The notes beneath the pieces were generated by a model, which saw only the letters and a program-made list of their open reading frames with translations, was not told the DNA's origin and made no database searches. Of a stretch of 64,000 nucleotides of DNA, positions 750-64,000 are shown piece by piece. Position numbers and translations under genes: made by a program. Origin of the DNA: Escherichia coli (GTDB taxonomy: Bacteria > Pseudomonadota > Gammaproteobacteria > Enterobacterales > Enterobacteriaceae); the NCBI RefSeq assembly GCF_044647545.1, contig NZ_CP172818.1. The stretch is one strand, 5' to 3'. Each line of letters opens with the position of its first letter. Position 1 is the first letter of the stretch.

Positions 750-2255
750 TTAGACATAGCGTTGAGGTAGAGAAACGCTGACACGCGTGCCGTGCAAACA
801 GGAGATGGTCAAGGTGCCGCCCAGCGCCGTTACGCGCTCGCGCATTCCGGTGAGGCCAAAACCTTGTTGCCCGGAACCCGGCGGCAAACCGCTGCCATCG
901 TCTTCAATTACCAGCATCAACCGTTCATCCTGCTGCCAGCCTTGCAGGGTGACCGCGCTGGCATCGGCATGTTTCACAATGTTGTTCAACCCTTCCTGGC
1001 AGACGCGAAACAGCGTCACGCGCTGGTTTTCGCTTAACGCTGATTCATCGATTCGCCATTCGAGATGACTGACAATGCCGCGCCCTTCCAGCTCCATTTC
1101 CCGCATCAGTGAGCGGATGGCCTGCTCCAGGGTGAGATCATCCAGCTGGCGCGGACGTAACCGCCCTAACAAACGGCGCACCGCATCGTAAACACCCAGC
1201 GACAGTTGTTCGATGAGCTGCCCGCTCTGCTTCACGCTGGCGTTATCTGCCGCCAGCCGCTGAACAATACCTGCTTGAGTACGAATAGCAGTGATGGTCT
1301 GACCGATATCGTCGTGCAGCTCACGCGCCACATCACGGCGCACGCTCTCTTCAGTTTCTAACAAACGTTCAGCCAGATGCTGATTGCGCGCTAGTTCCTT
1401 TTGCAGCGACTGGTTAAGTTCACGCAACCGCTGGATGCCTGCGCCCAGTAACAACCCTGTCAGACTTTGCACCAGCAGCGAGAGCAATAAATCCACCGAA
1501 TGATCGCGCCAGGTTTGACTGGCGATCAGCGCGATGGCGTTCATCAACGTCGCAATCAGCGCCCCTTGCCAGCCGTAGTGCCAGGCCAGCGCGATAATCG
1601 GCAGCGCCAGGCAGAATGGCGTAAAGCGCGACAGTTCGTCCGGCAATCCCAACTGGAGCCAGAGACTGATAACAAACAGCAGCAAGTACCAGACCAGATG
1701 CCGCCCGCGCCAGTTGATCGGTTGAGAAACTAACGACGGCCCGAGCGGCAGCCAGATGTTATTGGCGAGATAGTGCCAGAACACCAGACATATCGGGGCC
1801 AGCGTCAGGCCGCCAGTTAAAGTCAGCAACAGCGCATTCCACGACTCTTTCCCGTGCCAAAGCCAGGGCAGCGACTGCAACAACGCCGCCGCCGTCAGCG
1901 CCGCACCCTGTAACAGCAAGGTGCGCCAGTCACGTTGATGGCGATAGCGCGAGATCAGCGCCACGGGCAATAACGTCAGTAAACTACCGATCATCAATAA
2001 GGAGAAATGGGTTAAACCGACCGCCTGCATTAGCCAGTAAATCAGCAGCCACTCCGCACCCAGTAGCACCGGCCAGTATCCGCGCGGGCATTGCAGCATT
2101 AGCCCTAGCCGCAGGCCAAACGGAAATAACAGCACCGCCATATCAGGGCGCTCAACAAGGTGCAGGCTGATACTCCACAGGCAAAACCATGCGGCAGAGA
2201 AGATAAAAAAGCAGGCAATAACGGTAATTAAGCGAGAGAAAAACGTCTTCATCAC
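750..2255 (-). CDS. uhpB: Sensor histidine kinase UhpB
   Basis: 501-aa ORF (500 aa if the second Met is the start) with N-terminal membrane segments and a C-terminal HisKA_3/HATPase region (HDDIGQ...); start overlaps uhpA stop. Confidence 0.95.
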
Positions 2256-2842
2256 CAGCCATCAAACATGCGGCGCGCCAGTTCAACGTCGTTACTGACG
2301 CCCAGTTTTTCCATCAGGTTAGCGCGATGGACGTGTACCGTTTTCGGTGACAAGCCCAGTTCGGCGGCAATCTCTTTCACCGCCATTCCTTGCGCCAGTT
2401 TTTCCGCCACCTGGCGTTCGCGTTTGGTCAGCGGGTCCTGGCGACCGGATGCCAGTTTAATGGCAATATCCGGCGTCAGATAACAGCCGCCCGTGGCAAC
2501 CGTATGCACCGCAGCAATCAGTTCGTCAGGGCTACAACGCTTGGAGAGAAAGCCGCGCGCCCCCGCGTTAAGCGCCTGCTCAACCAGCGCCGGACTGTCA
2601 TGAACAGAGAGCATAATCGTCGCCATACCTTTCGGCAGCTGGCTTAGCAGCTCCAGACCGGAGATATCGGGCATGGAGATATCGCAAATACACACCTGCA
2701 CACCGCGCCCCGGCAGCCCCGCCAACGCCTCGCGCCCCGAACCAAACTCGGCAACTACCTGCAAATCAGGTTCCAGCCCCAGCAGCTGCGCAAAGCCGGA
2801 GCGGACGATGAGGTGATCGTCTATAAGTGCAACGGTGATCAT
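2252..2842 (-). CDS. uhpA: Response regulator UhpA (NarL/FixJ family)
   Basis: 196-aa product [17 protein letters not shown]... from ATG at 2840-2842; receiver domain plus LuxR-type HTH; the 216-aa track ORF is an upstream in-frame extension. Confidence 0.95.
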
Positions 2843-3139
2843 GATTGGGTCCTGGCGGATAAAAAACGCGCATACCTTAACGATAAGCGCGATGTTGTTC
2901 AAGTTGGATATGGGGTATGTATTCTTAATGATGTTGTCTTATCTCAAAACTTACGAAAGTAACGTTGTAGTTTATTCGAAAAACGAATTATTTGTAGTTC
3001 GATTGCAATATTCCTGAAAAATTTCTCCTCCTTCGAAATCTTTTCAGTAACAAAGATCATCCAAAACCTATAATCTTCACGGAACCTCATTAAGAGATCA
3101 TCCACGAGTCGTTATGAATATAATCCTCACCGTATTCGA

Positions 3140-4737
3140 TAAAAGAAATAAAAAATAAAACTAACAATCTATTGTTTTAAAAAAAAAAGGTTGGGAAAGA
3201 AGGGAAAAACAAGAAAAAAAATTTTTTCCCAAGAAAAAAAAAAACCGGGTAACAACAAACCGGGAAAAAAAAAAAAGGTTCCTGATAAAATACCCCCTAT
3301 CAACCGACAGAAACCTTGAACAACATAATACATTACCTATTCCTGAAATACTGAACAAGAAATAATTTTCGTTTTTTCCAACAATTAAAAATTCCAAAAA
3401 ATAAATCAGCAAAAAAATTCAAAAAAAATTCGGAAATTTTTCCAACCACAAAAAACTTATCCCAAAATCAGATGGCATTAATTTTAACCAAAAAAAGAAA
3501 ATGACCCCCCAATTTCGCCAAAGAAAAAAGGAAAAACCCCAAAAAAAATTTTTAAAATTAAAAAAAAAAAGAAATAATTAAGAATAATGATTTCTATATA
3601 TTAATGGCAACAAACAAATATTAAATTACAACACAACACAAACAAACTTTAAGTAAATTACTATACAAATCAATAACAATAACACCTTAACACACAAAAC
3701 AACCTACATTTCACAGTCATAACGAAAAAAATCATAAAACCACTCAATAAATAAAACACCGAAACAAATATAAAAAACATAAAAAAAAAAAAAAAAAAAA
3801 AACAAGAAAAAAAAAAAAAATAAAATAAAAATAAAAAAAAAAACGAAACGAAAAAATAATAAACAATAAAAGACCCCCACAAACAAACAAATCAAAACTA
3901 CACTCACTCCCCCTGATTGATTAAAAAAACATCTCTCAGATATAAAATACATAAAACAAACAAAAAAATAAATGAAAAAAAACAACAAATAAATAATTTA
4001 ATAATAAAAATAAAAATATTACGCAACAACAACTATCAACAAAAAAAATAAAAAAAAAAAACAAAGATAAGAAACGTAAGAAAAAAAAAAAAAAAAAAAA
4101 AAAAGACGAAAAAAAAAAAAAACTATGAATCCGAACAAGTAAAAAAAAAAAAAAAGAACAAACAATAACCAATCAAAAAAAAAAAAATAAATAAAAAAAA
4201 AAAATTCATTTAAAAAATGAAAAAAACACAAAAAAATAGAAAACAAAAAAAATAAAACAAACGGAAAAAAAAAAAAAAAAAAAAGAAGACTGAAGAAAAA
4301 AAATACTAAAAAAATAATTAATATTAAACCAAAAATAAAAAAAAATAAAAAATAAAAAACTAAAAAAACACAAAAAATCAACAAAAAATAAAAAAAAATA
4401 AACAAACCAAAAAAAAAAAAAAAAAAAAACGAAAACATTAAAATATATAACAAAATAAAAACTAAAAAAACAAAAAACAAACAAAAAAAAAAAAGAAATA
4501 ACAATAAAAAAAAAATTATAAACAACCAAAACAAATATAAAAAAAAAAACGAAAACAAAAAAAAATTAAAAAAAAAAAGAAAAATATAAAAAAAAAGAAA
4601 AAAGAAGAAAAATACAAAAAACAAAAAAATAAAAAAAAAAAAAAACACAAAAAAAAAAAAGAAAAACGAAAACAAGAAAAAAAAGAAAAATGTAAAATCA
4701 GCAAAATTCAGAAAATTTGAAAGAGAAAAAACCAAAA
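3140..4737. repeat. Poly(A)-dominated low-complexity tract on the + strand (T-rich on the - strand), non-coding
   Basis: Read directly: A runs longer than 20 nt (e.g. 3781-3802, 4081-4104) separated by single C/G/T or short motifs; frequent stop codons on the + strand; - strand gives only poly-Phe/Leu pseudo-ORFs. Boundaries approximate. Confidence 0.9.
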
Positions 4738-5028
4738 TTACTGAAAAAACACCACGATCTTGTTAAACATCGTCGGATTAGACTGATTACGCTGCACTTT
4801 CACCACATCTTCCAGCTTATCGATTTGGCTTATCACCTACTCCAGACGCTGGTCATCCTTGACCAGTAGCCAGATATGGCTTTTGTCGCTGTCCTGAATC
4901 GGCAGGCAGAGAATGCCTTCAACGTTAAAAGCGCGACGGGCAAAAAGCCCACAAACGTGAGTCATTACGCCCGGATGGTTGCGAACGGTGAGTTCGAGAA
5001 TCACGTTGTCATGAGTTGTGTTTTGCAT
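4738..5028 (-). pseudogene. ilvN: Acetolactate synthase I small (regulatory) subunit IlvN, interrupted by an in-frame TAG at codon 64
   Basis: Codons 1-63 read [63 protein letters not shown], then TAG (+ strand cta at 4837-4839), then 32 further in-frame ilvN-like codons ([32 protein letters not shown]) to TAA at 4738-4740. Confidence 0.85.
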
Positions 5029-5031
5029 GGC

Positions 5032-6720
5032 TTATTCCCCCACCATTTCAGTATTCGCCGCACCTGGCGGCACCATCGGGTACACTTTTTCTTCGGCATC
5101 AATACGCACATGGATCAGCGCCGGGCCAGGGCGATTGATGATTTCCTGTAATGCAGCCTGCGGATCGGTTTCGTTATTCAAATCACAGGTTTCGAGGCCG
5201 AATCCGGCGGCAATCTGCATAAAGTTGATTTTTCCCGGATAGGTAGCGGCAAAAACGCCCTGCTTGTAGAACAGACTCTGTTGCTGATGTACCAGCCCCA
5301 GCGCTTCGTTGTTCATCAGAATGATTTTGACATCCAGCTGATTTTCACTGGCGGTCGCCATCTCCTGAATATTCATCATCAGGCTGCCGTCGCCGGAGAA
5401 ACACAACACTTTGCGATCCGGGTTCGCCAGCGCTGCGCCAATCGCCGCAGGCAGGCCAAAGCCCATCGTGCCCAGCCCGCCGGAGGTCAGCCACTGGCGC
5501 GGGCGATTGAGCGGATAAGCCTGCGCCGTCCACATCTGATGCTGACCCACGTCGGTGGTGATAATCGCGCTGTCATCGACACAGGCGGCAACAGCGTTGA
5601 TCAGGCCGTAATGCGTTAACGGATCGCACGCTTTCGGGATTGGACACGGGAATTCGCGCTGCAAATCCGCCACCAACTGGTGCCACTCTGCACGCGGTTG
5701 CGCTTCCACCAGCGGGATCAATTGCGCCAGCACGTCATCAACATCCGCCTGAATCGCTACGTGCGGTTGCTTGATTTTGCCCAGCTCTGCACGGTCGATA
5801 TCGACATGAATGATTTTCGCATTCGGGCAGAACTGCTCGGTTTTGCCAATCGCCCGGTCATCAAAACGCGCACCGAGCACAATCAGCAGATCCGCCTCCT
5901 GCAGTATATAGTTGGTGCTGCGCACGCCGTGCATCCCCAGCATACCCAGCGACAGCGGATTCGCTTTTGGCAGCATGCCCAGCGCCATTAAGGTCATGGT
6001 AGTTGGCAATTGCGCTTTCTCTGCCAGTTCACGCACCCGTGCGGGCGCATTGATCACACCGCCGCCCAGATAAAGCACCGGGCGTTTGGCGGCGTTAATC
6101 ATTGCCGCTGCGTCACGAATGCTTTCTTCGCTAAAGGCGGGTGCGGCGGCTTTTTCTGCCATAGCTGGCTGTGCTTCAATCTCAAAAACCGCCGTTTGCA
6201 CATCTTTAGGAATGTCTATCCACACCGGGCCAGGGCGGCCTGATTGCGCAATGCGGAAGGCATCGCTCATGACCTGCGGGAGTTCTTCGATATGTCTGAC
6301 CAGATAGTTGTGTTTGGTGATGGGGATAGAGATGCCGTAGGTGTCCACTTCCTGGAAGGCGTCGGTGCCGATCATCGAGGCAGGAACCTGACCGGTGATG
6401 CAAATCAGCGGGATGGAATCCAGCCGCGCATCGGCAATGGCGGTCACCAGGTTAGTCGCACCCGGTCCGCTACAGGCCATACAGACCGCCGGTTTACCGT
6501 CGGTGCGCGCCATTCCCTGAGCGATAAACCCCGCGCCCTGTTCATGGCGAGCCAGAATATGGCGGATTTGCGTGCTTTGGCTTAAGGCATCGTAAACAGG
6601 CAGGATAGAACCGCCCGGAATGCCCGTCACAATCTTAATGCCCTGCTGTTCCAGGAAATGAACGATAAATTCTGCGCCGGTAAAGCGCTTACGCGTCGAT
6701 GTTGTGCCCGAACTTGCCAT
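5032..6720 (-). CDS. ilvB: Acetolactate synthase I large subunit IlvB (ThDP/FAD enzyme)
   Basis: 562-aa ORF with ThDP-binding acetohydroxyacid synthase signature (GDGSLMMNIQE...); immediately upstream of ilvN with a 3-nt gap. Confidence 0.95.
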   Translation of the reverse strand: MASSGTTSTRKRFTGAEFIVHFLEQQGIKIVTGIPGGSILPVYDALSQSTQIRHILARHEQGAGFIAQGMARTDGKPAVCMACSGPGATNLVTAIADARLDSIPLICITGQVPASMIGTDAFQEVDTYGISIPITKHNYLVRHIEELPQVMSDAFRIAQSGRPGPVWIDIPKDVQTAVFEIEAQPAMAEKAAAPAFSEESIRDAAAMINAAKRPVLYLGGGVINAPARVRELAEKAQLPTTMTLMALGMLPKANPLSLGMLGMHGVRSTNYILQEADLLIVLGARFDDRAIGKTEQFCPNAKIIHVDIDRAELGKIKQPHVAIQADVDDVLAQLIPLVEAQPRAEWHQLVADLQREFPCPIPKACDPLTHYGLINAVAACVDDSAIITTDVGQHQMWTAQAYPLNRPRQWLTSGGLGTMGFGLPAAIGAALANPDRKVLCFSGDGSLMMNIQEMATASENQLDVKIILMNNEALGLVHQQQSLFYKQGVFAATYPGKINFMQIAAGFGLETCDLNNETDPQAALQEIINRPGPALIHVRIDAEEKVYPMVPPGAANTEMVGE

Positions 6721-6765
6721 GCTCCAGTCCTTTTCTTCTGGGCCGACTTTCCGGGAGGTGCTTAA

Positions 6766-6798
6766 ACGAAAAACCCCGCCCGGTTTGCGCCGGCGGGG
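6766..6798 (-). terminator. ilvB attenuator (rho-independent terminator downstream of the leader peptide)
   Basis: GC-rich inverted repeat ccccgcc...ggcgggg (6774-6798) followed on the - strand by a U-run, between ivbL and ilvB. Confidence 0.75.
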
Positions 6799-6825
6799 TT
6801 TTGGAATCGTGTGTTGTTCCAGTCC

Positions 6826-6924
6826 CTACGGCGCATTGCCGACGACGACCACCACACGCACGACGACCACTGCGGCGGATGGCGCAGTTGGTAGTAGTTT
6901 TGCGTTGAGCATGGAAGTAGTCAT
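6826..6924 (-). CDS. ivbL: ilvB operon leader peptide (Val/Leu-rich attenuation peptide)
   Basis: Translated by hand: MTTSMLNAKLLPTAPSAAVVVVRVVVVVGNAP (32 aa), with the classic Val run. Confidence 0.9.
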   Translation of the reverse strand: MTTSMLNAKLLPTAPSAAVVVVRVVVVVGNAP

Positions 6925-7084
6925 TGGGGACCTTGTTGGTTTTGTGTTTAACAATATTTATACAAGCACAGCTTTACAGGGGAGACAATGGAAAATTTTT
7001 CAGCAAGGGAAAATTGAGGGGTTGATCACGTTTTGTACTGAATTGCGGGTAACAAAAAACCCCGCCGGAGCGAGGTTTCGTCAG

Positions 7085-7230
7085 TCGCCTGCGGCTGGTA
7101 ACCGCAAAGCACACTGTATTATGTCAACACTGAAAGTATACGTGTTCCGCGCAGAACGCGCAATTTCGGCACGAATTTTGACGTATTTAGTACATAGTTG
7201 AGTATCGTTCACAGTTTTCGTTTTGTCCAA
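7085..7230 (-). ncRNA. istR: Probable IstR antitoxin sRNA region (IstR-1/IstR-2), divergent from tisB; boundaries approximate
   Basis: Position between ivbL and the LexA box/tisB matches the known istR-tisAB arrangement; exact ends cannot be fixed from sequence alone. Confidence 0.4.
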
Positions 7231-7234
7231 ATAT

Positions 7235-7254
7235 TACTGTTTATTTATACAGTA
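7235..7254. promoter_or_regulatory. LexA (SOS) box at the tisAB/istR-2 promoter
   Basis: TACTGTTTATTTATACAGTA fits the CTGT-N8-ACAG LexA consensus; a TATAAT -10 hexamer follows at 7261-7266. Confidence 0.85.
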
Positions 7255-7488
7255 AACTTCTATAATATCACTGTACGCAATGTGTTATGCGGGGGCCGCA
7301 TCGTTACCCGGCGCACTAAGTCCTGGCTGAAACGGGTGGTGCCGTCAGCGCCTTAACCCCGCGTGAGCACACTGTGTTATGTCAACAAGCACAACGTTTC
7401 TCCTTGAGATACCGCGTGCACAACAGCTGGCAACAGGCAGCGGAAAGGTACGTCAGCTGGCAGTGCTCCTGAACCACAGGAGACGCGT

Positions 7489-7578
7489 ATGAGCCTGGTG
7501 GATATCGCCATTCTTATCCTCAAACTCATTGTTGCAGCACTGCAACTGCTTGATACTGTTCTGAAATACCTGAAGTAA
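7489..7578 (+). CDS. tisB: Type I toxin TisB (SOS-induced small membrane peptide)
   Basis: Translated by hand: MSLVDIAILILKLIVAALQLLDTVLKYLK (29 aa), downstream of the LexA box. Confidence 0.85.
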   Translation: MSLVDIAILILKLIVAALQLLDTVLKYLK

Positions 7579-7600
7579 TTCAGATTCAAGTCGCACCAAA

Positions 7601-7630
7601 GGGGAGCGGGTAACCGCTCCCCTTTCATAT
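7601..7630 (+). terminator. Rho-independent terminator after tisB
   Basis: Hairpin ggggagcgg/ccgctcccc followed by a T-rich stretch. Confidence 0.7.
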
Positions 7631-7857
7631 TTAGCGTGCGGGTTGGTGTCGGATGCAATGCTGATGCATCTTATCCGCCCTACCATCCCTCCCGGCAACA
7701 TTTATTGCCGCTTTTGTTTACATATTCTGCCGCTAAACAATTCCCCATTCCTGGCGTATATCTGGCTAACATTTATCAATGTGATAGATTCCTCTCCCGC
7801 ATTTATGGGAATGCGTAGTGACTTATTCTAATTATTTTTATAAAAGCATCCGTGATA

Positions 7858-9042
7858 ATGAAAAGGCATAGAAACGTCAATTTGTTATTGATGTTGGTAT
7901 TACTCGTGGCCGTCGGTCAGATGGCGCAAACCATATATATTCCAGCTATTGCCGATATGGCGCGCGATCTCAACGTCCGTGAAGGGGCGGTGCAGAGCGT
8001 AATGGGCGCTTATCTGCTGACTTACGGTGTCTCACAGCTGTTTTATGGCCCGATTTCCGACCGTGTGGGTCGCCGACCGGTGATCCTCGTCGGAATGTCC
8101 ATTTTTATGCTGGCAACGCTGGTCGCGGTCACGACCTCCAGTTTGACAGTATTGATTGCCGCCAGCGCGATGCAGGGGATGGGCACCGGCGTTGGCGGCG
8201 TAATGGCGCGTACTTTGCCGCGTGATTTATATGAACGGACACAGTTGCGCCATGCTAATAGCCTGTTAAACATGGGAATTCTTGTCAGTCCGTTGCTCGC
8301 ACCGCTAATCGGCGGTCTGCTGGATACGATGTGGAACTGGCGCGCCTGTTATCTCTTTTTGTTGGTACTTTGTGCCGGTGTGACCTTCAGTATGGCCCGC
8401 TGGATGCCGGAAACGCGTCCGGTCGACGCACCGCGCACGCGCCTGCTTACCAGTTATAAAACGCTTTTCGGTAACAGCGGTTTTAACTGTTATTTGCTGA
8501 TGCTGATTGGCGGTCTGGCCGGGATTGCCGCCTTTGAAGCCTGCTCCGGCGTGCTGATGGGCGCGGTGTTAGGGTTGAGCAGTATGACGGTCAGTATTTT
8601 GTTTATTCTGCCGATTCCGGCGGCATTTTTTGGGGCATGGTTTGCCGGACGTCCTAATAAACGCTTCTCAACGTTGATGTGGCAGTCGGTTATCTGCTGC
8701 CTGCTGGCTGGCTTACTGATGTGGATCCCCGACTGGTTTGGCGTGATGAATGTCTGGACGCTGCTCGTTCCCGCCGCGCTGTTCTTTTTCGGTGCCGGGA
8801 TGCTGTTTCCGCTGGCGACCAGCGGCGCGATGGAGCCGTTCCCTTTCCTGGCGGGCACGGCTGGCGCGCTGGTCGGCGGTCTACAAAACATTGGTTCCGG
8901 CGTGCTGGCGTCGCTCTCTGCGATGTTGCCGCAAACCGGTCAGGGCAGCCTGGGGTTGTTGATGACCTTAATGGGATTGTTGATCGTGCTGTGCTGGCTA
9001 CCGCTGGCGACGCGGATGTCGCATCAGGGGCAGCCTGTTTAA
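7858..9042 (+). CDS. emrD: Multidrug efflux MFS transporter EmrD
   Basis: 394 aa from ATG at 7858 (MKRHRNVNLLLMLVLLVAVGQMAQTIYIP...); the track ORF starts two codons upstream at GTG. Confidence 0.95.
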   Translation: MKRHRNVNLLLMLVLLVAVGQMAQTIYIPAIADMARDLNVREGAVQSVMGAYLLTYGVSQLFYGPISDRVGRRPVILVGMSIFMLATLVAVTTSSLTVLIAASAMQGMGTGVGGVMARTLPRDLYERTQLRHANSLLNMGILVSPLLAPLIGGLLDTMWNWRACYLFLLVLCAGVTFSMARWMPETRPVDAPRTRLLTSYKTLFGNSGFNCYLLMLIGGLAGIAAFEACSGVLMGAVLGLSSMTVSILFILPIPAAFFGAWFAGRPNKRFSTLMWQSVICCLLAGLLMWIPDWFGVMNVWTLLVPAALFFFGAGMLFPLATSGAMEPFPFLAGTAGALVGGLQNIGSGVLASLSAMLPQTGQGSLGLLMTLMGLLIVLCWLPLATRMSHQGQPV

Positions 9043-9049
9043 GCTCACG

Positions 9050-9547
9050 TCACCGCAGCATCGTCATCAGCTCCATGGGAGAACGATGCTGCTTTATCAG
9101 ATCACGCATCACCCGCATATGCGGCGCGGAGTAAGAATAAAACGCCTGATAGCCCGCACAAAGCACGTTGTCTGGCGTCTCCTCCCGAGCGTGCGGGCAC
9201 AGGCGATGCCAGTCGCACGCCTGGCAGCCACGACGCGGTTGCGGGTTTTCGCTGCCACACCATTTTTGTAGGGTGGCGTCAAAAAGCTCAATCGAAATAC
9301 GACTGATATCTGCCCGTACCCAACACTCGAACAGGGCAATTAAAAATTTCCCCCACAGCTCTGCTGTCACCGAAGCGGCCGTCAGATCGCCCCGGTCATC
9401 AAATTCAAGATGGGGAATAAGCTGTACGGAGCGGATACCCCGTTGTTTGAAATTGTGATAAAAATCGGCAGGTTGCAGAGCATCCTTGTACTCTACAACC
9501 AGTTTATGCCTGTCCTCTTCAGCATCAATGACCTGACTTCCTGTCAT
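9050..9547 (-). CDS. yidF: YidF, Cys-rich SPASM-like protein (putative sulfatase-maturating enzyme lacking a radical-SAM core)
   Basis: 165-aa ORF with clustered cysteines (CGSENPQPRRGCQACDWHRLCPHA) but no CxxxCxxC motif; adjacent to sulfatase yidJ. Confidence 0.8.
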   Translation of the reverse strand: MTGSQVIDAEEDRHKLVVEYKDALQPADFYHNFKQRGIRSVQLIPHLEFDDRGDLTAASVTAELWGKFLIALFECWVRADISRISIELFDATLQKWCGSENPQPRRGCQACDWHRLCPHAREETPDNVLCAGYQAFYSYSAPHMRVMRDLIKQHRSPMELMTMLR

Positions 9548-9906
9548 GCGACTCTCTCAATAAATACGATAAGTTGATGTATATGCGTTACAGCAAACAG
9601 TATTGCGAGAGATAACACCGCGAGGGAGATCAAAAATTTGTCACGGACTACGTGAAATTGGGAAAAATCGCTATTCGTGACATCCATTAAATTGCGATTA
9701 CGGGTGTAGTGCCAGAGGATCAGCGCCACAATGGCGAGAATGCCAATCGAAATCCAGAATAACATGCCCGCCTGGTGCCAGTTGTGTTTGATAGCCAACG
9801 CCATCAACGCGCCGTAGCCCAGCATGGTACGAAACCACGCCAGTGATGTACGCTCCGGCTGCAGCCCTGGGTCGGCAATGCGTCTGGCTTTGCGGCTATC
9901 CGGCAT
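9544..9906 (-). CDS. yidG: Inner membrane protein YidG
   Basis: 120-aa hydrophobic ORF, overlapping yidF start and yidH stop. Confidence 0.8.
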   Translation of the reverse strand: MPDSRKARRIADPGLQPERTSLAWFRTMLGYGALMALAIKHNWHQAGMLFWISIGILAIVALILWHYTRNRNLMDVTNSDFSQFHVVRDKFLISLAVLSLAILFAVTHIHQLIVFIERVA

Positions 9907-10243
9907 ACAACACCAGTCCCATAACGATCACCGCCACGACCATCAATATTAAGCTGATGATTAATAAGCTGTTGGTGTAGGGCAGGTCCTCTTTCAGACG
10001 CATCGCTTTTTCATTGCGTAACCAGCGCAGGTAGCCATACATCGCTAACCCGCCGGAAAACAGACACAACAACAACGCCAGCAGTTCGCGAATGACGGGC
10101 GTGGCGAAATCTGGCGCAAGTTGATCAAGCCCAACCCCCGCCGCCAGAAAGCCTAGTGCGGTACGGATCCACGCCAGAAAAGTACGCTCATTAGCCAGCG
10201 AGAAGCGATAATCAGGTGCTTCTCCGAGGCGGGAAATTTTCAT
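9896..10243 (-). CDS. yidH: Inner membrane protein YidH (DUF202-like)
   Basis: 115-aa hydrophobic ORF with an AGGAG ribosome-binding site upstream. Confidence 0.8.
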   Translation of the reverse strand: MKISRLGEAPDYRFSLANERTFLAWIRTALGFLAAGVGLDQLAPDFATPVIRELLALLLCLFSGGLAMYGYLRWLRNEKAMRLKEDLPYTNSLLIISLILMVVAVIVMGLVLYAG

Positions 10244-10302
10244 TGTTGCTCCTTAACTGTTCCTCGCCGAAAAAAGTAGGCCAGGAAAACAGCAATAATG
10301 CA

Positions 10303-13674: not shown

Positions 13675-17021
<3,347 letters not shown>

Positions 17022-23859: not shown

Positions 23860-25148
23860 CCAACGCGCTTCACATCGCCCACCAGCAGGATGTAAGAGAG
23901 CGCGCCAATCAACGCAACGGCGGAGATATAAACCAGTGCAGGCGCGAAACCGTAACCCTGCGCCAGGTACCCCACCACCAGAGGAACGGTGATGCCGCCC
24001 AGACCACCGACAAAGTTAAACACGCCGCCGGTTAAACCAATCAGGCGCATCGGTGCCAGAGAAGAGACCAGCGACCAGGTAATCGAAGCAAAACCGTTGC
24101 CGAAGAATGCCAGCGCCATCAGGCACATAATCATCATCGGATCGTTAGTGTAGTTAGCGCCCATAATGCAGGTGGAGATCAGCAAGCCGCAGATAATCGG
24201 CGTTTTACGCGCAAAGCCCAGTGAAAAGCCCTTACGTACCAGCAGATCCGCGACCCAGCCAGAGAGCAGGACGCCGACAAACGCCGCGAGGAACGGTACC
24301 GTGGTCATAAAGCCTGCTTTCAGCGCCGTGATTCCTTTTTCCTGGGTTAAATAGTTCGGGAACCAGGTTAAAAAAAACCACAGTGTAGAAGCCACCGCAA
24401 ATTGCCCAAGATAGACACCGATCAGTTTACGATGGAACACCAGTTTCCAGTCTTTGGCTGTTAACGGCTGACGCGCCTCTTTTTTCACCGGCGCATCACC
24501 ATCCACCAGACCGCCGCCATCACGAATGTAATCCAGTTCAGCTTTGCTGATGCCTTTAGTCAGGCGCGGCGGCTGATAAACCTTAAACCAAATCAGCGAC
24601 CAGATAATGCCGATACCACCGGTGACAATGAACACCCAGTGCCAGCTCAACATTTCCTGAATCCAGATCAGCAGCGGAGTCAGAAACGCCAGACCGACAA
24701 ACTGACCAGACGTATAAAAACCAACGGCAGAAGCGCGTTCATGTTCCGGGAACCAGCTGGTCACCATCCGGTTATTGGTCGGGAAAGCGGGCGCTTCGAA
24801 AATACCGGTTATCGCGCGCAGACCAATTAATGACATTAATCCCGTGGCAAAGCCCTGGAATAACGTCGCCACTGACCAGCCAAATATCGCAATAAAATAA
24901 GTCACGCGTGAACCTACGCGATCTAAAAACCAACCGCCGGGGATCTGACATAGCGTATAAAGCCAGGCGAAGGCCGAAAATACATAGCCCATTTCCGCTT
25001 TCGTAATACCGAACTCTTCCTGAATATGGGCGGAAGCCACGGCCAGGTTAGCGCGGTCAACATAACAAATGACCACCGTAATAAAGATCATCACCAGCGT
25101 CAGATAACGCCGACGCCCCGGCTTTGCTGCATTAACGGGAATATCCAT
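23856..25148 (-). CDS. dgoT: D-galactonate:H+ symporter DgoT (MFS)
   Basis: 430 aa from internal Met ([22 protein letters not shown]...). Confidence 0.9.
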
Positions 25149-25267
25149 AGCGAGCTTTCTCCAGATTTTGGGCATAGCGAAGCCGCTCACCATGCCCTGT
25201 AATTTACAGAGGGTTATATTTTTGTATTGCTGTTTTAGTGCCCGATGAGGGGCTTACGTGGCAGGAA

Positions 25268-26416
25268 TTACCACTCTGCTACGCTGTTATCTTCATGACG
25301 CCAGAGCGGATTACGCCAGTCCGGGGCATTTTTACTGAACTCAATAACTTTAGCTTCGTCGATTTCCACGCCTAAGCCCGGTTTCGTTAGCGGTTTAAAG
25401 AAGCCGCCAACCATGCTGAAGTCTTCTTTGTTTTTCACAAAGTCGAGTAACTCCGCGCCTTTGTTGTAATGAATTCCCATACTTTGTTCCTGAAGTACGG
25501 CGTTATAGGAAACAAAGTCGATATGCAGACAAGCTGCCAGTGCAATCGGTCCGAGCGGACAGTGCGGCGCAAGGGTCACGTCATAGGCTTCTGCCATTCC
25601 GGCAATTTTGTAGCATTCGGTAATACCGCCTGCATGAGAGAGATCTGGTTGCAGAATCGAAATACCGCCCGCCTCCAGCACGCGTTTAAAATCGAAACGT
25701 GAGAACATGCGTTCACCCGCCGCCAGAGGAATATGCGTTTGTGCCGCCAGTTTCGGGTAGTATTCGGCCTGTTCCGCCAGCACCGGCTCTTCAATAAACA
25801 GCGGGCGATACGGTTCCAGTTCTTTAATCAGTACTTTCGCCATCGGCGCGCTGACGCGACCGTGGAAATCAAGACCAAACTCAATCTGATTGCCAAAAGC
25901 TTCACGAATTTGTGCCACGGTGTTGACTGCCGCATCTACCGCGCGGGAGTTATCAATTAGCCCCAGTTCTTCACAACCGTTCAGTTTGAAGGTATCGAAG
26001 CCGATTTCGCGCAGGGTTTTAATGCCGTCGATAACATTCGCCGGACGATCGCCGCCGACCCAACTGTAGGCTTTAATTTTGTCACGAACCAGGCCACCCA
26101 TCAGTTGCCAGACCGGCGCATTCAGCACTTTACCTTTGATATCCCATAACGCCTGGTCGATCCCGGCGATGGCGCTCATCAGGATCGGACCGCCACGATA
26201 AAATCCGGCGCGATACATCACTTGCCATAAGTCATTGATGCGCGATGGATCCTGACCAATCAAATAGTCACTCAGCTCGTGAACTGCCGCTTCCACCGTA
26301 CGAGCGCGGCCTTCGATCACGGGCTCGCCCCAACCGACCACGCCTTCATCGGTTTCAATTTTCAGGAACATCCAGCGGGGAGGTAAACGATACGTAGTAA
26401 TTTTGGTGATTTTCAT
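25268..26416 (-). CDS. dgoD: D-galactonate dehydratase DgoD (enolase superfamily)
   Basis: 382-aa [35 protein letters not shown]... Confidence 0.95.
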
Positions 26417-27030
26417 TGCACTGCCTCTCGATACGCCTTAACAAATGCTGCTGCCTGCTGCGCGGTGCGTTCTACGGATTGCCCGGCGCGATAGAGATCG
26501 CTGCCTAAGCCCGCCCCTGCACAACCTGCGTCTATCCACTGCGCCAGGTTTTCTGGCGTCACACCGCCAACGGCAAAGACTGCGATGTCCTGCGGTAATA
26601 CCGCTTTTAACGCTTTGATGTATTGCGGACCAAAAGCCGATGACGGGAATATTTTCAGCGCCTGCGCGCCCGCGTCGATCGCGGTAAAGGCTTCAGTCGC
26701 CGTCGCGCAGCCGGGGCAAACGGTCATGCCATAGCCCACCGCGCGGCGGATCACTTCACTATGGATATTGGGCGTAACGATGAGCTGGCAGCCCATCCTG
26801 GCGAGCGTATCGACCTGTTCAGGTTTCAGTACCGTACCTGCGCCAATCAACGCCTTATCGCCGTACGCATCAACGATGGCGGGAATGCTTTTCTCCCATT
26901 GAGGGGAATTCAGCGGGATTTCAACCGCGTCGAACCCGGCGTCAATCACCGCGCCAACATGCGCCAGCGCCTCGTCGGGCGTAATACCGCGCAAAATGGC
27001 GATCAGCGGGAGTTTAGTTTGCCACTGCAT
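26413..27030 (-). CDS. dgoA: 2-dehydro-3-deoxy-6-phosphogalactonate aldolase DgoA
   Basis: 205-aa ORF, overlaps dgoD start. Confidence 0.95.
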
Positions 27031-27892
27031 GAGCGATGCTCCTTATACCAGCCTGAAATGCCTTGTCGCCCGCTACCACCGCCACGTCGCAACCCATCGC
27101 CTGAAAGGCTTGCTGGTAGCGCGCGGTCAGCGATGTTCCGGCGACAAGGGTGATGGCGTGTTGATGGGTCACATAGTCGCGCATACTGGCAACCTCTGCG
27201 CCAATCAACAAACCAGAGAGAAATTCGCTGACCTGTTCACGGGGAAGCGTTCCCAGCACATGCGATGCGCGAACTTCAAAAAGCTGCGGCAATATGGCGG
27301 GCGCATTAAGGCCACGCTCAAGGCCAGCCGCGAAGGCATCGGCAGAGTTTTCCTGCGGCGGCAAACCTGCGCCAATCAATGAGTGATTTAACAGTAAATG
27401 ATGTAATTCACCGGTCATTACGGTGCGAAAATCGTTGATTTGCTGGCTATCGGCCTGCACCCATTTGCAATGCGTACCGGGCATGACATAAAGAGAGGAA
27501 GGAGCCAAAGCACGCGCGCCGATCAATTGTGTTTCTTCGCCGCGCATCACATTGTGGTTATCGTCATGAGAAACGCATAATCCGGGAATAATCCAGATAT
27601 TGTCGCCAACAGACGTTAATTGTTCGCCAATAGATGAAAAACGGGCAGGAACAGATAAATACGGTGCAACTTTCCAGCCGACATTGCTGCCGACCATTCC
27701 TGCCATCACCACTGGCGTATTCTCTTCACGCCAGTCGGCCGTGACTTCTGCTAACACCGCAGCCGGAGATTTTCCGTTCAGGCGCGTGACGCCTGCTTCT
27801 GATTGCCTGCTCTCCAGGCAGTGGTCGCCCTGATAAAGCCAGGCGCGCAGATTGGTCGATCCCCAGTCAATTGCGATGTAGCGAGCTGTCAT
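27014..27892 (-). CDS. dgoK: 2-dehydro-3-deoxygalactonokinase DgoK
   Basis: 292-aa ORF, overlaps dgoA and dgoR. Confidence 0.95.
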   Translation of the reverse strand: MTARYIAIDWGSTNLRAWLYQGDHCLESRQSEAGVTRLNGKSPAAVLAEVTADWREENTPVVMAGMVGSNVGWKVAPYLSVPARFSSIGEQLTSVGDNIWIIPGLCVSHDDNHNVMRGEETQLIGARALAPSSLYVMPGTHCKWVQADSQQINDFRTVMTGELHHLLLNHSLIGAGLPPQENSADAFAAGLERGLNAPAILPQLFEVRASHVLGTLPREQVSEFLSGLLIGAEVASMRDYVTHQHAITLVAGTSLTARYQQAFQAMGCDVAVVAGDKAFQAGIRSIAHAVAN

Positions 27893-28578
27893 GTGATTTC
27901 CTTTAACCTTCGTGTCGAGCTGGCGATCATGGTAAGCGCCGCCTGCTCTGCCGCATCGCCGTCCTGATGCCGTATCGCATCAAACAGCGCCTTATGTTCC
28001 TGGAGCGTTTGCGGCATGTTGGCCTCATCACCCATCCAGGTTCGTTCAAATACCGCCCGCTGCAGCGAACTGATCGCAATGCTAAGTTGCTGTAACACCG
28101 GGTTATGCACCGACTGCAGCACCGCCTCGTGGTAGCGAATATCCGCTTCGTTAAACGCTTCGCGGTCCTGATTGTTGGCAATCATCTCGTTCAGCGCTGA
28201 TTCAATCTGCGCCAGATCGCTGGAAGTCGCGCGCTCTGCCGCCCAACGGGCAATCGCCGGTTCCACCAGATTTCGCACTTCGCTCATTGCACTGATAAGC
28301 CGTGGGTCGTAGTCGTTTTCCAGCACCCATTGCAGTACGTCAGTATCGAGGTAATTCCACTGATTACGCGGTGCCACAAACGCCCCGCGATAACGTTTCA
28401 TTTCAATCAGCCGCTTCGCCATCAGCGAACGGAACACCTCACGGATGATGTTGCGCGAGGTTGCAAACTCCTCACAGAGCTCCGCCTCAGCCGGAAGCGG
28501 CGAGCCTGGTACGTATTTGCCGTGAACGATCTGTTTACCCAGCGTAATGACGATGCGATCGGTTTTATTGAGAGTCAT
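27889..28578 (-). CDS. dgoR: GntR/FadR-family repressor of the dgo operon DgoR
   Basis: 229-aa ORF with N-terminal wHTH; first gene of dgoRKADT. Confidence 0.95.
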   Translation of the reverse strand: MTLNKTDRIVITLGKQIVHGKYVPGSPLPAEAELCEEFATSRNIIREVFRSLMAKRLIEMKRYRGAFVAPRNQWNYLDTDVLQWVLENDYDPRLISAMSEVRNLVEPAIARWAAERATSSDLAQIESALNEMIANNQDREAFNEADIRYHEAVLQSVHNPVLQQLSIAISSLQRAVFERTWMGDEANMPQTLQEHKALFDAIRHQDGDAAEQAALTMIASSTRRLKEIT

Positions 28579-28855
28579 GGAGAGTCCTTGTGCTCTGTAT
28601 GTTCTTCTCTACTTTACCCCGATCGATGCATAACGCGGCAACTTTGTAGTACCAGCGTGATGACGTTCGCGTTTTCCGTGTGCGTAATGTAGTACAAGCT
28701 TATATTACTGTACTACAATTTAGATCACAAAAAGAACAATGCATAAAAAAATGACATGCGTCGGGCAGAAATCTGAAAAGGGATAACAGGCGCTAAACAG
28801 GAGGGAAAGAAGAGTATGCTTTCAACGACTTAGCTACTCGTTTAAAGGATTAATC

Positions 28856-30881: not shown

Positions 30882-31015
30882 GATAATCACCTGTAAAGCG
30901 TTACGTGTTGACCCAAAAAGTATAGATCTGCGGGATGATAATTGCGGATTGCAGAAATAAAAAGGGCGGAGATGATCTCCCGCGACTAAGTCATTTTATC
31001 AGCAACAAAAAGCCA

Positions 31016-50089: not shown

Positions 50090-50755
50090 ATGTCCCAGAT
50101 AGAAGCGGTATTTTTCGACTGCGACGGTACGCTGGTCGATAGCGAGGTCATTTGCTCTCGCGCCTATGTCACGATGTTCAGGGAATTTGGCATTCACGTT
50201 GACCTGGAGGAGATTTTTACCCGTTTTAAAGGCGTAAAACTCTACGAAATCATCGACATCATCAGTAAAGAACAGGGCGTGACGATGATCCAGGCCGATG
50301 CCGAGCACGTTTACCGCGCAGAAGTGGCGCGTCTGTTTGATACCGAACTTGAGGACATCGCAGGAGCGAACGAATTGCTGGCGAGCATTAACGTGCCGAT
50401 GTGCGTCGTCTCTAACGGTCCGATCAACAAAATGCAGCATTCGCTGGGTAAGCTCAAGATGCTGCACTACTTCCCGGAAAAACTGTTCAGCGGCTACGAT
50501 ATCCAGCGTTGGAAGCCCGACCCGGCGTTAATGTTCCATGCGGCAAAAGCGATGAATGTAAACGTTGAAAACTGCATTCTGGTCGATGACTCCAGCGCCG
50601 GTGCGCAATCAGGGATAGATGCCGGAATGGAAGTGTTTTACTTCTGCGCTGACCCGCACAATAAACCGATCGTTCACCCGAAAGTCACCACATTTACCGA
50701 GCTGGCGCAGCTGCCTGCACTCTGGAAGGCACGCGGCTGGAATATAACGGCATAG
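50090..50755 (+). CDS. yieH: HAD-superfamily phosphatase YieH
   Basis: 221-aa ORF MSQIEAVFFDCDGTLVDSE (DxDGT HAD motif I). Confidence 0.9.
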   Translation: MSQIEAVFFDCDGTLVDSEVICSRAYVTMFREFGIHVDLEEIFTRFKGVKLYEIIDIISKEQGVTMIQADAEHVYRAEVARLFDTELEDIAGANELLASINVPMCVVSNGPINKMQHSLGKLKMLHYFPEKLFSGYDIQRWKPDPALMFHAAKAMNVNVENCILVDDSSAGAQSGIDAGMEVFYFCADPHNKPIVHPKVTTFTELAQLPALWKARGWNITA

Positions 50756-50821
50756 TTCTTCACACTCCCTTCACTTACCCCGCTTAAATTGGCGCTCAAA
50801 GGTAAGTAAAGGGAGTTTGAT

Positions 50822-51289
50822 ATGTCTGTTTCACGTCGGGTAATACATCACGGACTTTATTTTGCAGTTTTAGGACCGTTAATTGGTGTTCTGTTTCTTG
50901 TCCTCTACATATTCTTCGCAAAAGAACCGCTGGTTCTTTGGGTGATAATACATCCAATTTTTCTCTTATTGTCGATAACTACGGGAGCTATTCCTGCGTT
51001 GTTAACCGGTGTAATGGTTGCCTGTCTGCCGGAAAAGATCGGGTCACAGAAACGTTATCGTTGTCTGGCTGGTGGCATAGGTGGCGTCGTTATCACCGAG
51101 ATCTATTGTGCAGTTATTGTACATATTAAGGGCATGGCTTCCTCGGAGTTGTTTGAAAACATTCTTTCTGGTGACAGTCTCGTTGTCCGCATCATTCCTG
51201 CATTGCTGGCAGGTGTGGTGATGAGCAGAATCATTACCCGTCTACCCGGATTGGATATTTCATGTCCTGAAACAGACTCTTTAAGTTAA
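50822..51289 (+). CDS. cbrB: Inner membrane protein CbrB (CreBC-regulated)
   Basis: 155-aa hydrophobic ORF. Confidence 0.8.
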   Translation: MSVSRRVIHHGLYFAVLGPLIGVLFLVLYIFFAKEPLVLWVIIHPIFLLLSITTGAIPALLTGVMVACLPEKIGSQKRYRCLAGGIGGVVITEIYCAVIVHIKGMASSELFENILSGDSLVVRIIPALLAGVVMSRIITRLPGLDISCPETDSLS

Positions 51290-59973
<8,684 letters not shown>

Positions 59974-60130
59974 AGTCATTTATTAATGGTTTTTATAACG
60001 AACATCCAGGTTCGGAAATTAATTTAATTGCGTGCAGAGAAAATAGCAATGCGCTATTGATAAAAATATGACCATGCTCGCAGTTATTAACTTTGTGTAA
60101 TTTTAGGAATTTATAAAGTTATATATAACA

Positions 60131-60160
60131 AATCCCAATAATTAAGTTATTGGGATTTGT
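60131..60160 (-). terminator. Rho-independent terminator after phoU
   Basis: Hairpin aaatcccaataa...ttattgggattt just downstream of the phoU stop. Confidence 0.6.
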
Positions 60161-60168
60161 CTGGTGAA

Positions 60169-60894
60169 TTATTTGTCGCTATCTTTTCCGGCCAGCAGTT
60201 TATCCAGCTCATCACCGCCTACATGACGGAAATCCTGCCCCTTCACGTAGTAGAAGATAAACTCACAAATATTCTGGCAGCGGTCGCCGATACGTTCGAT
60301 TGAACGCGCACAGAATAGCGCGGTAAGTACGCTCGGAATGGTGCGCGAATCTTCCATCATGTAGGTCATCAGTTGACGAACAATACCTTCGTACTCCTGA
60401 TCGACTTTTTTATCTTCCCGATAAATACGTACCGCTTCGTCAATGTCCATCCGCGCGAACGCGTCCAGCACGTCGTGCAGCATCTGGATGGTATGACGGC
60501 CCAGCGACTCCAGACTTACCAGCAACGGCTGATGCTGCTGGGAGAATTTCTCCAGCGCAGTACGGCAGATTTTGTCCGCCACGTCGCCAATACGCTCCAG
60601 CTCGGCAATGGTTTTACTGATCACCATAACCAGACGCAGGTCGCTCGCCGTCGGCTGACGTTTGGCGATAATGCGCACGCAAGCTTCATCGATCGCCACT
60701 TCCATCATGTTGACGTTCTTGTCGCCTTCGATGACGCGCTTCGCCAGATCGCTGTCCTGGTTATGCATCGCGGTGATTGCATCAGAAAGCTGCTGCTCCA
60801 CCATGCCGCCCATGGTCATCACCTGCGTGCGGATACTTTCCAGTTCGGCGTTGAACTGGCCGGAAATATGTTTATTAAGATTGAGACTGTCCAT
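60169..60894 (-). CDS. phoU: Phosphate signalling protein PhoU
   Basis: 241 aa [36 protein letters not shown]... Confidence 0.97.
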
Positions 60895-60908
60895 AACGCA
60901 CTCCTGAA

Positions 60909-63623
<2,715 letters not shown>

Positions 63624-63663
63624 TTACTCTTCAGTTAAACGCGTTTACAAAGTCATTTTGTAA

Positions 63664-63697
63664 TGCCGGATGCGGCGTAAAACACCGTACCCGGCCT
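63664..63697. repeat. REP-like palindromic element between pstS and pstC
   Basis: gccggatgcggcg...ccggc partial palindrome typical of REP sequences. Confidence 0.5.
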
Positions 63698-63705
63698 GAA
63701 TTTTA

Positions 63706-64000
<295 letters not shown>

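Follow-up and report, generated by a model that had tools for sequence, protein, structure and literature searches.

The amber codon (TAG) at position 64 of the ilvN gene described here is very probably not a property of the organism, and sequence comparison suggests that it belongs to a technical patchwork of two paralogous sequences. The gene encodes the small subunit of acetohydroxyacid synthase I (AHAS I) and occupies positions 4738..5028 on the minus strand (96 codons) of the window, by which we mean the whole 64,000-nt stretch of Escherichia coli DNA that was analyzed. We propose that the 3′ two-thirds of ilvN as presented would be a per-site mix of the true gene and a 227-bp ilvN pseudogene fragment that is found elsewhere in many E. 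coli chromosomes. At each site at which the two copies differ, the state would have been picked more or less by chance, except that plus-strand G was disfavored. We infer a technical origin from the patchwork itself, from its randomness, from its absence in finished genomes, and from its adjacency to corrupted sequence. The real ilvN of the strain most likely reads CAG at codon 64 and is an ordinary gene of 96 codons.

The ilvN reading frame and its surroundings

The window runs through uhpCBA, ilvNB, ivbL, tisB, and emrD and on to dnaA, tnaA, bgl, and pst. For comparison we used the closest complete genome, E. coli FDAARGOS_497 (NZ_CP033850.1). On the left, positions 1-2923 aligned to this reference with 0 mismatches over 2,923 bases (reference stretch L001, offset 222), and this identical flank includes an intact uhpA (2252..2842, minus strand; L001 2474-3064). 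On the right, positions 4961-10254 also had 0 mismatches to FDAARGOS_497, over 5,294 bases, and positions 5029-9029 were 100.0% identical to it and to many other genomes. This side contains ilvB (5032..6720, minus strand), the gene for the large subunit of AHAS I, which was identified by its open reading frame and by annotation in relatives and is intact at 562 amino acids. Farther right, the window and FDAARGOS_497 differ at a rate of 1.25 per kb. Given this background, the occurrence of at least 10 substitutions in the 223 nt bordering an A-rich tract next to ilvN has a Poisson probability of about 6 × 10−13; the density of substitutions in ilvN is far above chance divergence.

The original prediction described an ilvN frame that is intact for 63 codons, reads TAG at codon 64, and then continues in frame to the normal TAA, and this is confirmed in the sequence as given. 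The TAG appears on the plus strand as CTA at 4837-4839, where codon 64 of true ilvN is CAG. The frame is thereby divided into two open reading frames on the minus strand. The first (4837..5028) encodes 63 amino acids, MQNTT...DDQRLE, and ends with TAG; the second (4738..4836), in frame with ilvN, begins with GTG and comprises 32 codons up to the normal TAA, the last base of which is position 4738. Compared to its ortholog in FDAARGOS_497, ilvN has exactly 10 substitutions (at 4754, 4771, 4779, 4836, 4839, 4855, 4858, 4876, 4948, and 4960) and 0 indels. Five of these alter the protein (N57K, Q64*, M65V, D84N, and A92V), and the other 5 are silent. The IlvN protein of FDAARGOS_497 is 100% identical to PDB 2LVW (also 5YPP), and by alignment to it the IlvN residues expected in the original prediction proved right at every position cited (N57, Gln64, M65, SDP, and IAVFFQ). 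The 5′ part of the gene, consisting of codons 1-22 and the first two bases of codon 23 (4961..5028, minus strand), had 0 mismatches to the ortholog and lies almost wholly outside the segment that ilvN has in common with the pseudogene fragment.

Apart from these changes, the gene resembles known E. coli IlvN (PDB 2LVW, 5YPP, and 6LPI; NCBIfam NF006036) in its arrangement as ivbL-ilvB-ilvN upstream of uhpA and in its length and frame. Codons 1-56 encode an identical protein, and the differences at the protein level are K57, TAG64, V65, N84, and V92. With codon 64 read as Gln, the 96-amino-acid product scored 178.4 bits in NF006036, above the curated cutoff of 128 bits, compared with 185.8 bits for the reference; the 63-amino-acid open reading frame alone scored 128.1 bits, at the cutoff. 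The operon position is also that of IlvN, with the start of ilvN at 5028 directly after ilvB in ivbL-ilvBN, a gene order that agrees with annotated genomes. What the gene lacks among the hallmarks of IlvN is an unbroken 96-codon reading frame, owing to the TAG at codon 64.

A pseudogene fragment and the patchwork at 4754-4960

When we searched with a short query across the TAG, an ilvN pseudogene fragment was a better match than any true ilvN. The fragment is 227 bp long and lies beside an island with a DeoR-family regulator, rbsK, and fucP, for example at 4928597-4928823 of NZ_CP023844.1. In RefSeq it is named either “acetolactate synthase small subunit” (pseudo) or “ACT domain-containing protein.” Fragment and flank together were matched, over 80% or more of the query, in 1,585 of 5,426 complete E. 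coli genomes (about 30%). Besides truncated versions, there are two main types, A and B, which have about 92% identity over a 381-nt query reaching into the flanks. Copies of the fragment lie at L004 3943-4169, L005 3943-4169, L006 3064-3290, L007 1064-1340, and L008 1064-1210. We examined types A-D for the amber codon, and every type examined carries TAG at codon 64 (plus-strand A at 4839, where the ortholog has G). Together with TAG64, the fragment has the states K57, V65, N84, and V92 as well as a 1-bp deletion at 4942. The fragment often adjoins IS3-family elements, and it may be what is left of a former insertion or rearrangement at ilvN.

In window coordinates the annotated 227 bp span 4738-4964, and about 10-15 nt upstream of 4960 the fragment ceases to resemble ilvN, which accounts for the lack of any mismatch from 4961 onward. 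Among the matches listed, FDAARGOS_497 showed 1 ilvN-like place and other close relatives showed 2; the DeoR-adjacent locus falls outside the 64-kb window. The fragment carries all 10 of the deviant states of the window ilvN, including the TAG and the four amino-acid changes. It differs from the window ilvN in lying at another locus, without the first ~21 codons and without ilvB; the window, in turn, lacks its 1-bp deletion and some 10 more of its substitutions. The window copy, for its part, is not simply the pseudogene: it is full length, it follows ilvB, and it carries 10 of the 21 states that make up the full diagnostic set of the pseudogene.

We compared the two copies site by site across the resulting patchwork zone (4754..4960, minus strand), which comprises 10 sites in the pseudogene state and 11 in the true-ilvN state. 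All 10 changes in the window, TAG included, are the state of the type A pseudogene, an outcome with a chance of about 4 × 10−17 for 10 random substitutions; the apparent errors in ilvN are pseudogene-derived states, not random noise. At the 11 other sites that distinguish type A from true ilvN, the window has the true-ilvN state, which includes the lack of the 1-bp deletion. With P for pseudogene and O for ortholog, the order of states is POPOPOOOOPPPPPOOOOPOP, so that over 21 sites and 207 bp the state changes 10 times, once between the neighboring bases 4779 and 4780. When the order was permuted at random, 49.6% of the arrangements had 10 or fewer switches, and the observed order is indistinguishable from an independent choice at each site. 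The deviations are thus all of paralog state, all inside the shared 227 bp, and interleaved rather than contiguous; one or a few contiguous donor tracts, the pattern of gene conversion, were not found.

The states also fail to follow a single line of descent. Three states specific to type A are present in the window (4754, 4836, and 4858), and seven states common to all pseudogene types are absent from it (4756, 4780, 4792, 4809, 4822, 4942, and 4956). Since type A-specific states occur here without these seven common ones, the pattern is not tree-like and matches no single branching history. The window ilvN lies at 10 differences from the ortholog and 11 from pseudogene type A. Among the 12 sites at which one of the two copies offers a G on the plus strand, the window has the non-G state at 10 (binomial p = 0.019).

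Corrupted sequence next to ilvN and elsewhere in the window

The A-rich tract that borders ilvN (2924..4737, no strand assigned; 1,814 nt) was delimited by composition and alignment and is degenerate. Per 100 nt, its A content is up to 74-81% and its G content down to 0-8%. At the same place, between uhpA and ilvN, FDAARGOS_497 and thousands of other genomes have a 3,343-bp island of 36% GC with two hypothetical genes. The onset of the tract (about 230 nt) is this island with bases missing: the alignment has 258 matches, 36 deleted bases, 26 of which are G, and 3 T>A changes. The bias against plus-strand G in the ilvN patchwork mirrors these G deletions. Beyond the onset, similarity to the island fades, and the tract as a whole is 46% shorter than the island. 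Its right half had no significant similarity to anything tested and was unalignable, and the tract breaks off sharply at the stop codon of ilvN. The long minus-strand poly-Phe “ORFs” in the tract are meaningless.

Two accounts of the tract were tried and rejected. If the whole locus had been swapped, the tract could be a degraded DeoR flank of the pseudogene; a first alignment was suggestive of this, but with either flank the scores did not stand out from shuffled controls (z of −1.2 to 1.3). Strand-specific cytosine deamination, which would appear as G>A on the plus strand, was discarded on the grounds that T and C were also lost, that the tract is shortened, and that its onset consists of G deletion.

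Two smaller corrupted patches were found farther along the window. At 10255-10287, in the yidH-yidJ intergenic region, “GTA” is lost and three A’s are gained in short A runs compared to FDAARGOS_497, to which the adjoining sequence has 0 mismatches. At 14780-14802, a 23-nt A-rich filler, ATTTCCCACAAAAAACAAAAAAAAAAA, stands in place of 505 bp of the 6-phospho-alpha-glucosidase gene (L002 9752-10256), and after it the sequence resumes at a second copy of the 8-mer AGTGGTTC. This patch is corrupted in much the same manner as the main tract and would be mistaken for the disruption of a gene. Findings near 2924-4960, 10255-10287, and 14780-14802 should not be read as biology.

Other differences between the window and its relatives have a more ordinary appearance. 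From 24010 to 28828 (cbrA-dgoTDAKR), 45 substitutions compared to FDAARGOS_497, mostly transitions and without indels, lie between long stretches with 0 mismatches, and the cluster looks like an ordinary recombination patch. At 30981, in the yidB-gyrB intergenic region, there is a 9-bp deletion compared to the same genome; this indel and the substitutions at 24010-28828 look natural. Beyond yieH, at 50750-64000, the window departs from FDAARGOS_497, which has different genes there, and contains cbrBC-yieKL-bglHBFG-phoU-pst instead. In this region, positions 51000-60000 had 0 mismatches to K-12 MG1655 and positions 61773-64000 were only 96.7% identical to it, and 85 bp that lie between pstB and pstA in K-12 are missing from the window. 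The region at 50750-64000 may be a natural mosaic or the product of chimeric assembly.

Origin of the amber codon and what a truncated IlvN would mean

To place the window ilvN among other sequences, we searched finished genomes, public assemblies, and metagenomes. The genome to which the window belongs is not among 5,426 complete E. coli genomes. None of 5,421 such genomes has the allele; its best match there (96.2% over 238 nt) is a normal ilvN that shares only the natural polymorphism at 4960. No complete genome had at least 80% cover of an ilvB-ilvN-DeoR junction. The window-specific 32-amino-acid C-terminal open reading frame was not on record in the public assembly collection, and a 43-mer across the junction (TAG plus the next ortholog-state sites) had 0 hits in 241 million metagenome records. 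The identical 63-amino-acid product, by comparison, occurs in 64 blocks of public assemblies, and in 55 of these the contig is shorter than 2 kb.

The public contigs with this product that we examined (L009-L014) resemble the window in that they arrive at the 63 amino acids by switching from true ilvN to the pseudogene within the shared 227 bp. In L011-L013, ilvB runs into the DeoR flank of the pseudogene. L014 ends exactly at ...GAGTAGG, and L010 has a run of N right after TAGG and then the ortholog state again. The metagenome scaffold L009 (282 kb) has an ilvN, flanked by uhpA, in which pseudogene states form a clean, uninterrupted block; no ilvN with such a contiguous block was found in complete E. 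coli genomes (best match, 97.6%). These contigs thus show 1-2 switches, or a break or N gap at the TAG, whereas the window has about 10 switches and, unlike them, its patchwork is embedded in a long contig and adjoins an A-rich degenerate tract. The 227-bp repeat demonstrably yields assembly chimeras in short-read and metagenome assemblies. “Truncated IlvN” calls in databases are largely a recurrent artefact that reflects ilvN/pseudogene chimeras, and such gene calls can mislead surveys of pseudogenes and pangenomes.

Several processes could have produced the mix of states in the window. Reads from both copies may have entered consensus building or polishing where true coverage was poor, or a chain of bubbles may have been popped in an assembly graph. 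A further option is that a sequence-copying or generating process went out of register in the AT-rich island, slid into poly-A, and locked on again at the A-rich motif TTACTGAAAAAACACC. As this motif is common to both ilvN copies, the re-locked process would be ambiguous until the shared segment ends.

The original prediction had offered two readings of the amber codon, and the comparison favors the second. A real truncated IlvN with altered valine feedback finds no support, given that the TAG is one of 10 pseudogene states amid 11 true-ilvN states, in an allele that the complete genomes lack. A sequence error linked to the adjacent tract agrees with the results, in that the changes lie in the 223 nt bordering the 1.8-kb tract and, like the tract, avoid plus-strand G. 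Such an error did not arise at random: single-base substitutions next to a low-quality tract are what independent point mutations or sequencing noise would leave, one of them making the amber codon by chance, but all 10 fall at sites where the pseudogene differs and all 10 have its base. This agreement rules out independent mutation or random noise, to which we give practically no probability. An allele imported by homologous recombination from the source lineage of the pseudogene, as an ancestral or intermediate form, is very improbable. The window ilvN is about equidistant from ortholog and type A, as such a form might be, but a functional donor gene would not carry TAG, the allele occurs in no complete genome, and no enterobacterial ilvN with these 10 states was found here. 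An ancestral or intermediate allele is moreover ruled out by the non-tree-like pattern, with its three type A-specific states and its seven missing common ones.

More weight, though still little, goes to ectopic gene conversion, in which the strain’s own pseudogene fragment would have overwritten parts of ilvN, brought in the TAG, and knocked out or split the regulatory subunit of AHAS I. All 10 changes are donor states, and many E. coli genomes carry the donor. Indels abound in the adjacent tract but are absent from ilvN, which did not take over the deletion at 4942, so that the frame is kept as it would be in a real allele. The block in L009 would also be a suitable product of conversion. 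Against this, conversion would require some 10 junctions within 207 bp, including one between neighboring bases, in an order that looks random; none of the 5,421 complete genomes has any conversion of ilvN, and neither the junction 43-mer nor the C-terminal open reading frame has been seen elsewhere. The zone also touches the corrupted tract and shares its bias against G. We therefore consider conversion unlikely. A variant, in which ilvN of a wild phylogroup-F-like E. coli was inactivated by conversion with highly patchy mismatch repair, is a shade less likely again. A technical patchwork of ilvN and its paralog remains by far the most probable reading.

The valine feedback site of AHAS I is in the small subunit (PMC8406616). 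If the allele in the window were true, AHAS I would have a regulatory subunit that is either 63 residues long or split, and the case would be one of natural “poisoning” of a functional parent gene by its pseudogene. Mendel et al. 2003 reportedly found that C-terminal truncations of IlvH still activate AHAS III and lose valine sensitivity. The truncated IlvN is similar to these in concept, as a shortened ACT-domain subunit with altered feedback. It differs in that truncated IlvH retains its whole N-terminal ACT domain, whereas IlvN has a single ACT domain, which a stop at codon 64 of 96 would interrupt, presumably removing the second helix and the last strand of the ACT fold. The literature on truncations of IlvN itself yielded general background only. 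For such an AHAS small subunit, losing both regulation and the activation of IlvB would be likelier than altered feedback. A true allele would leave AHAS I without valine feedback and without most of its activity, a modest consequence given the other AHAS isozymes in E. coli. As biology, the amber codon is of little weight, and the strain most likely has a normal ilvN.
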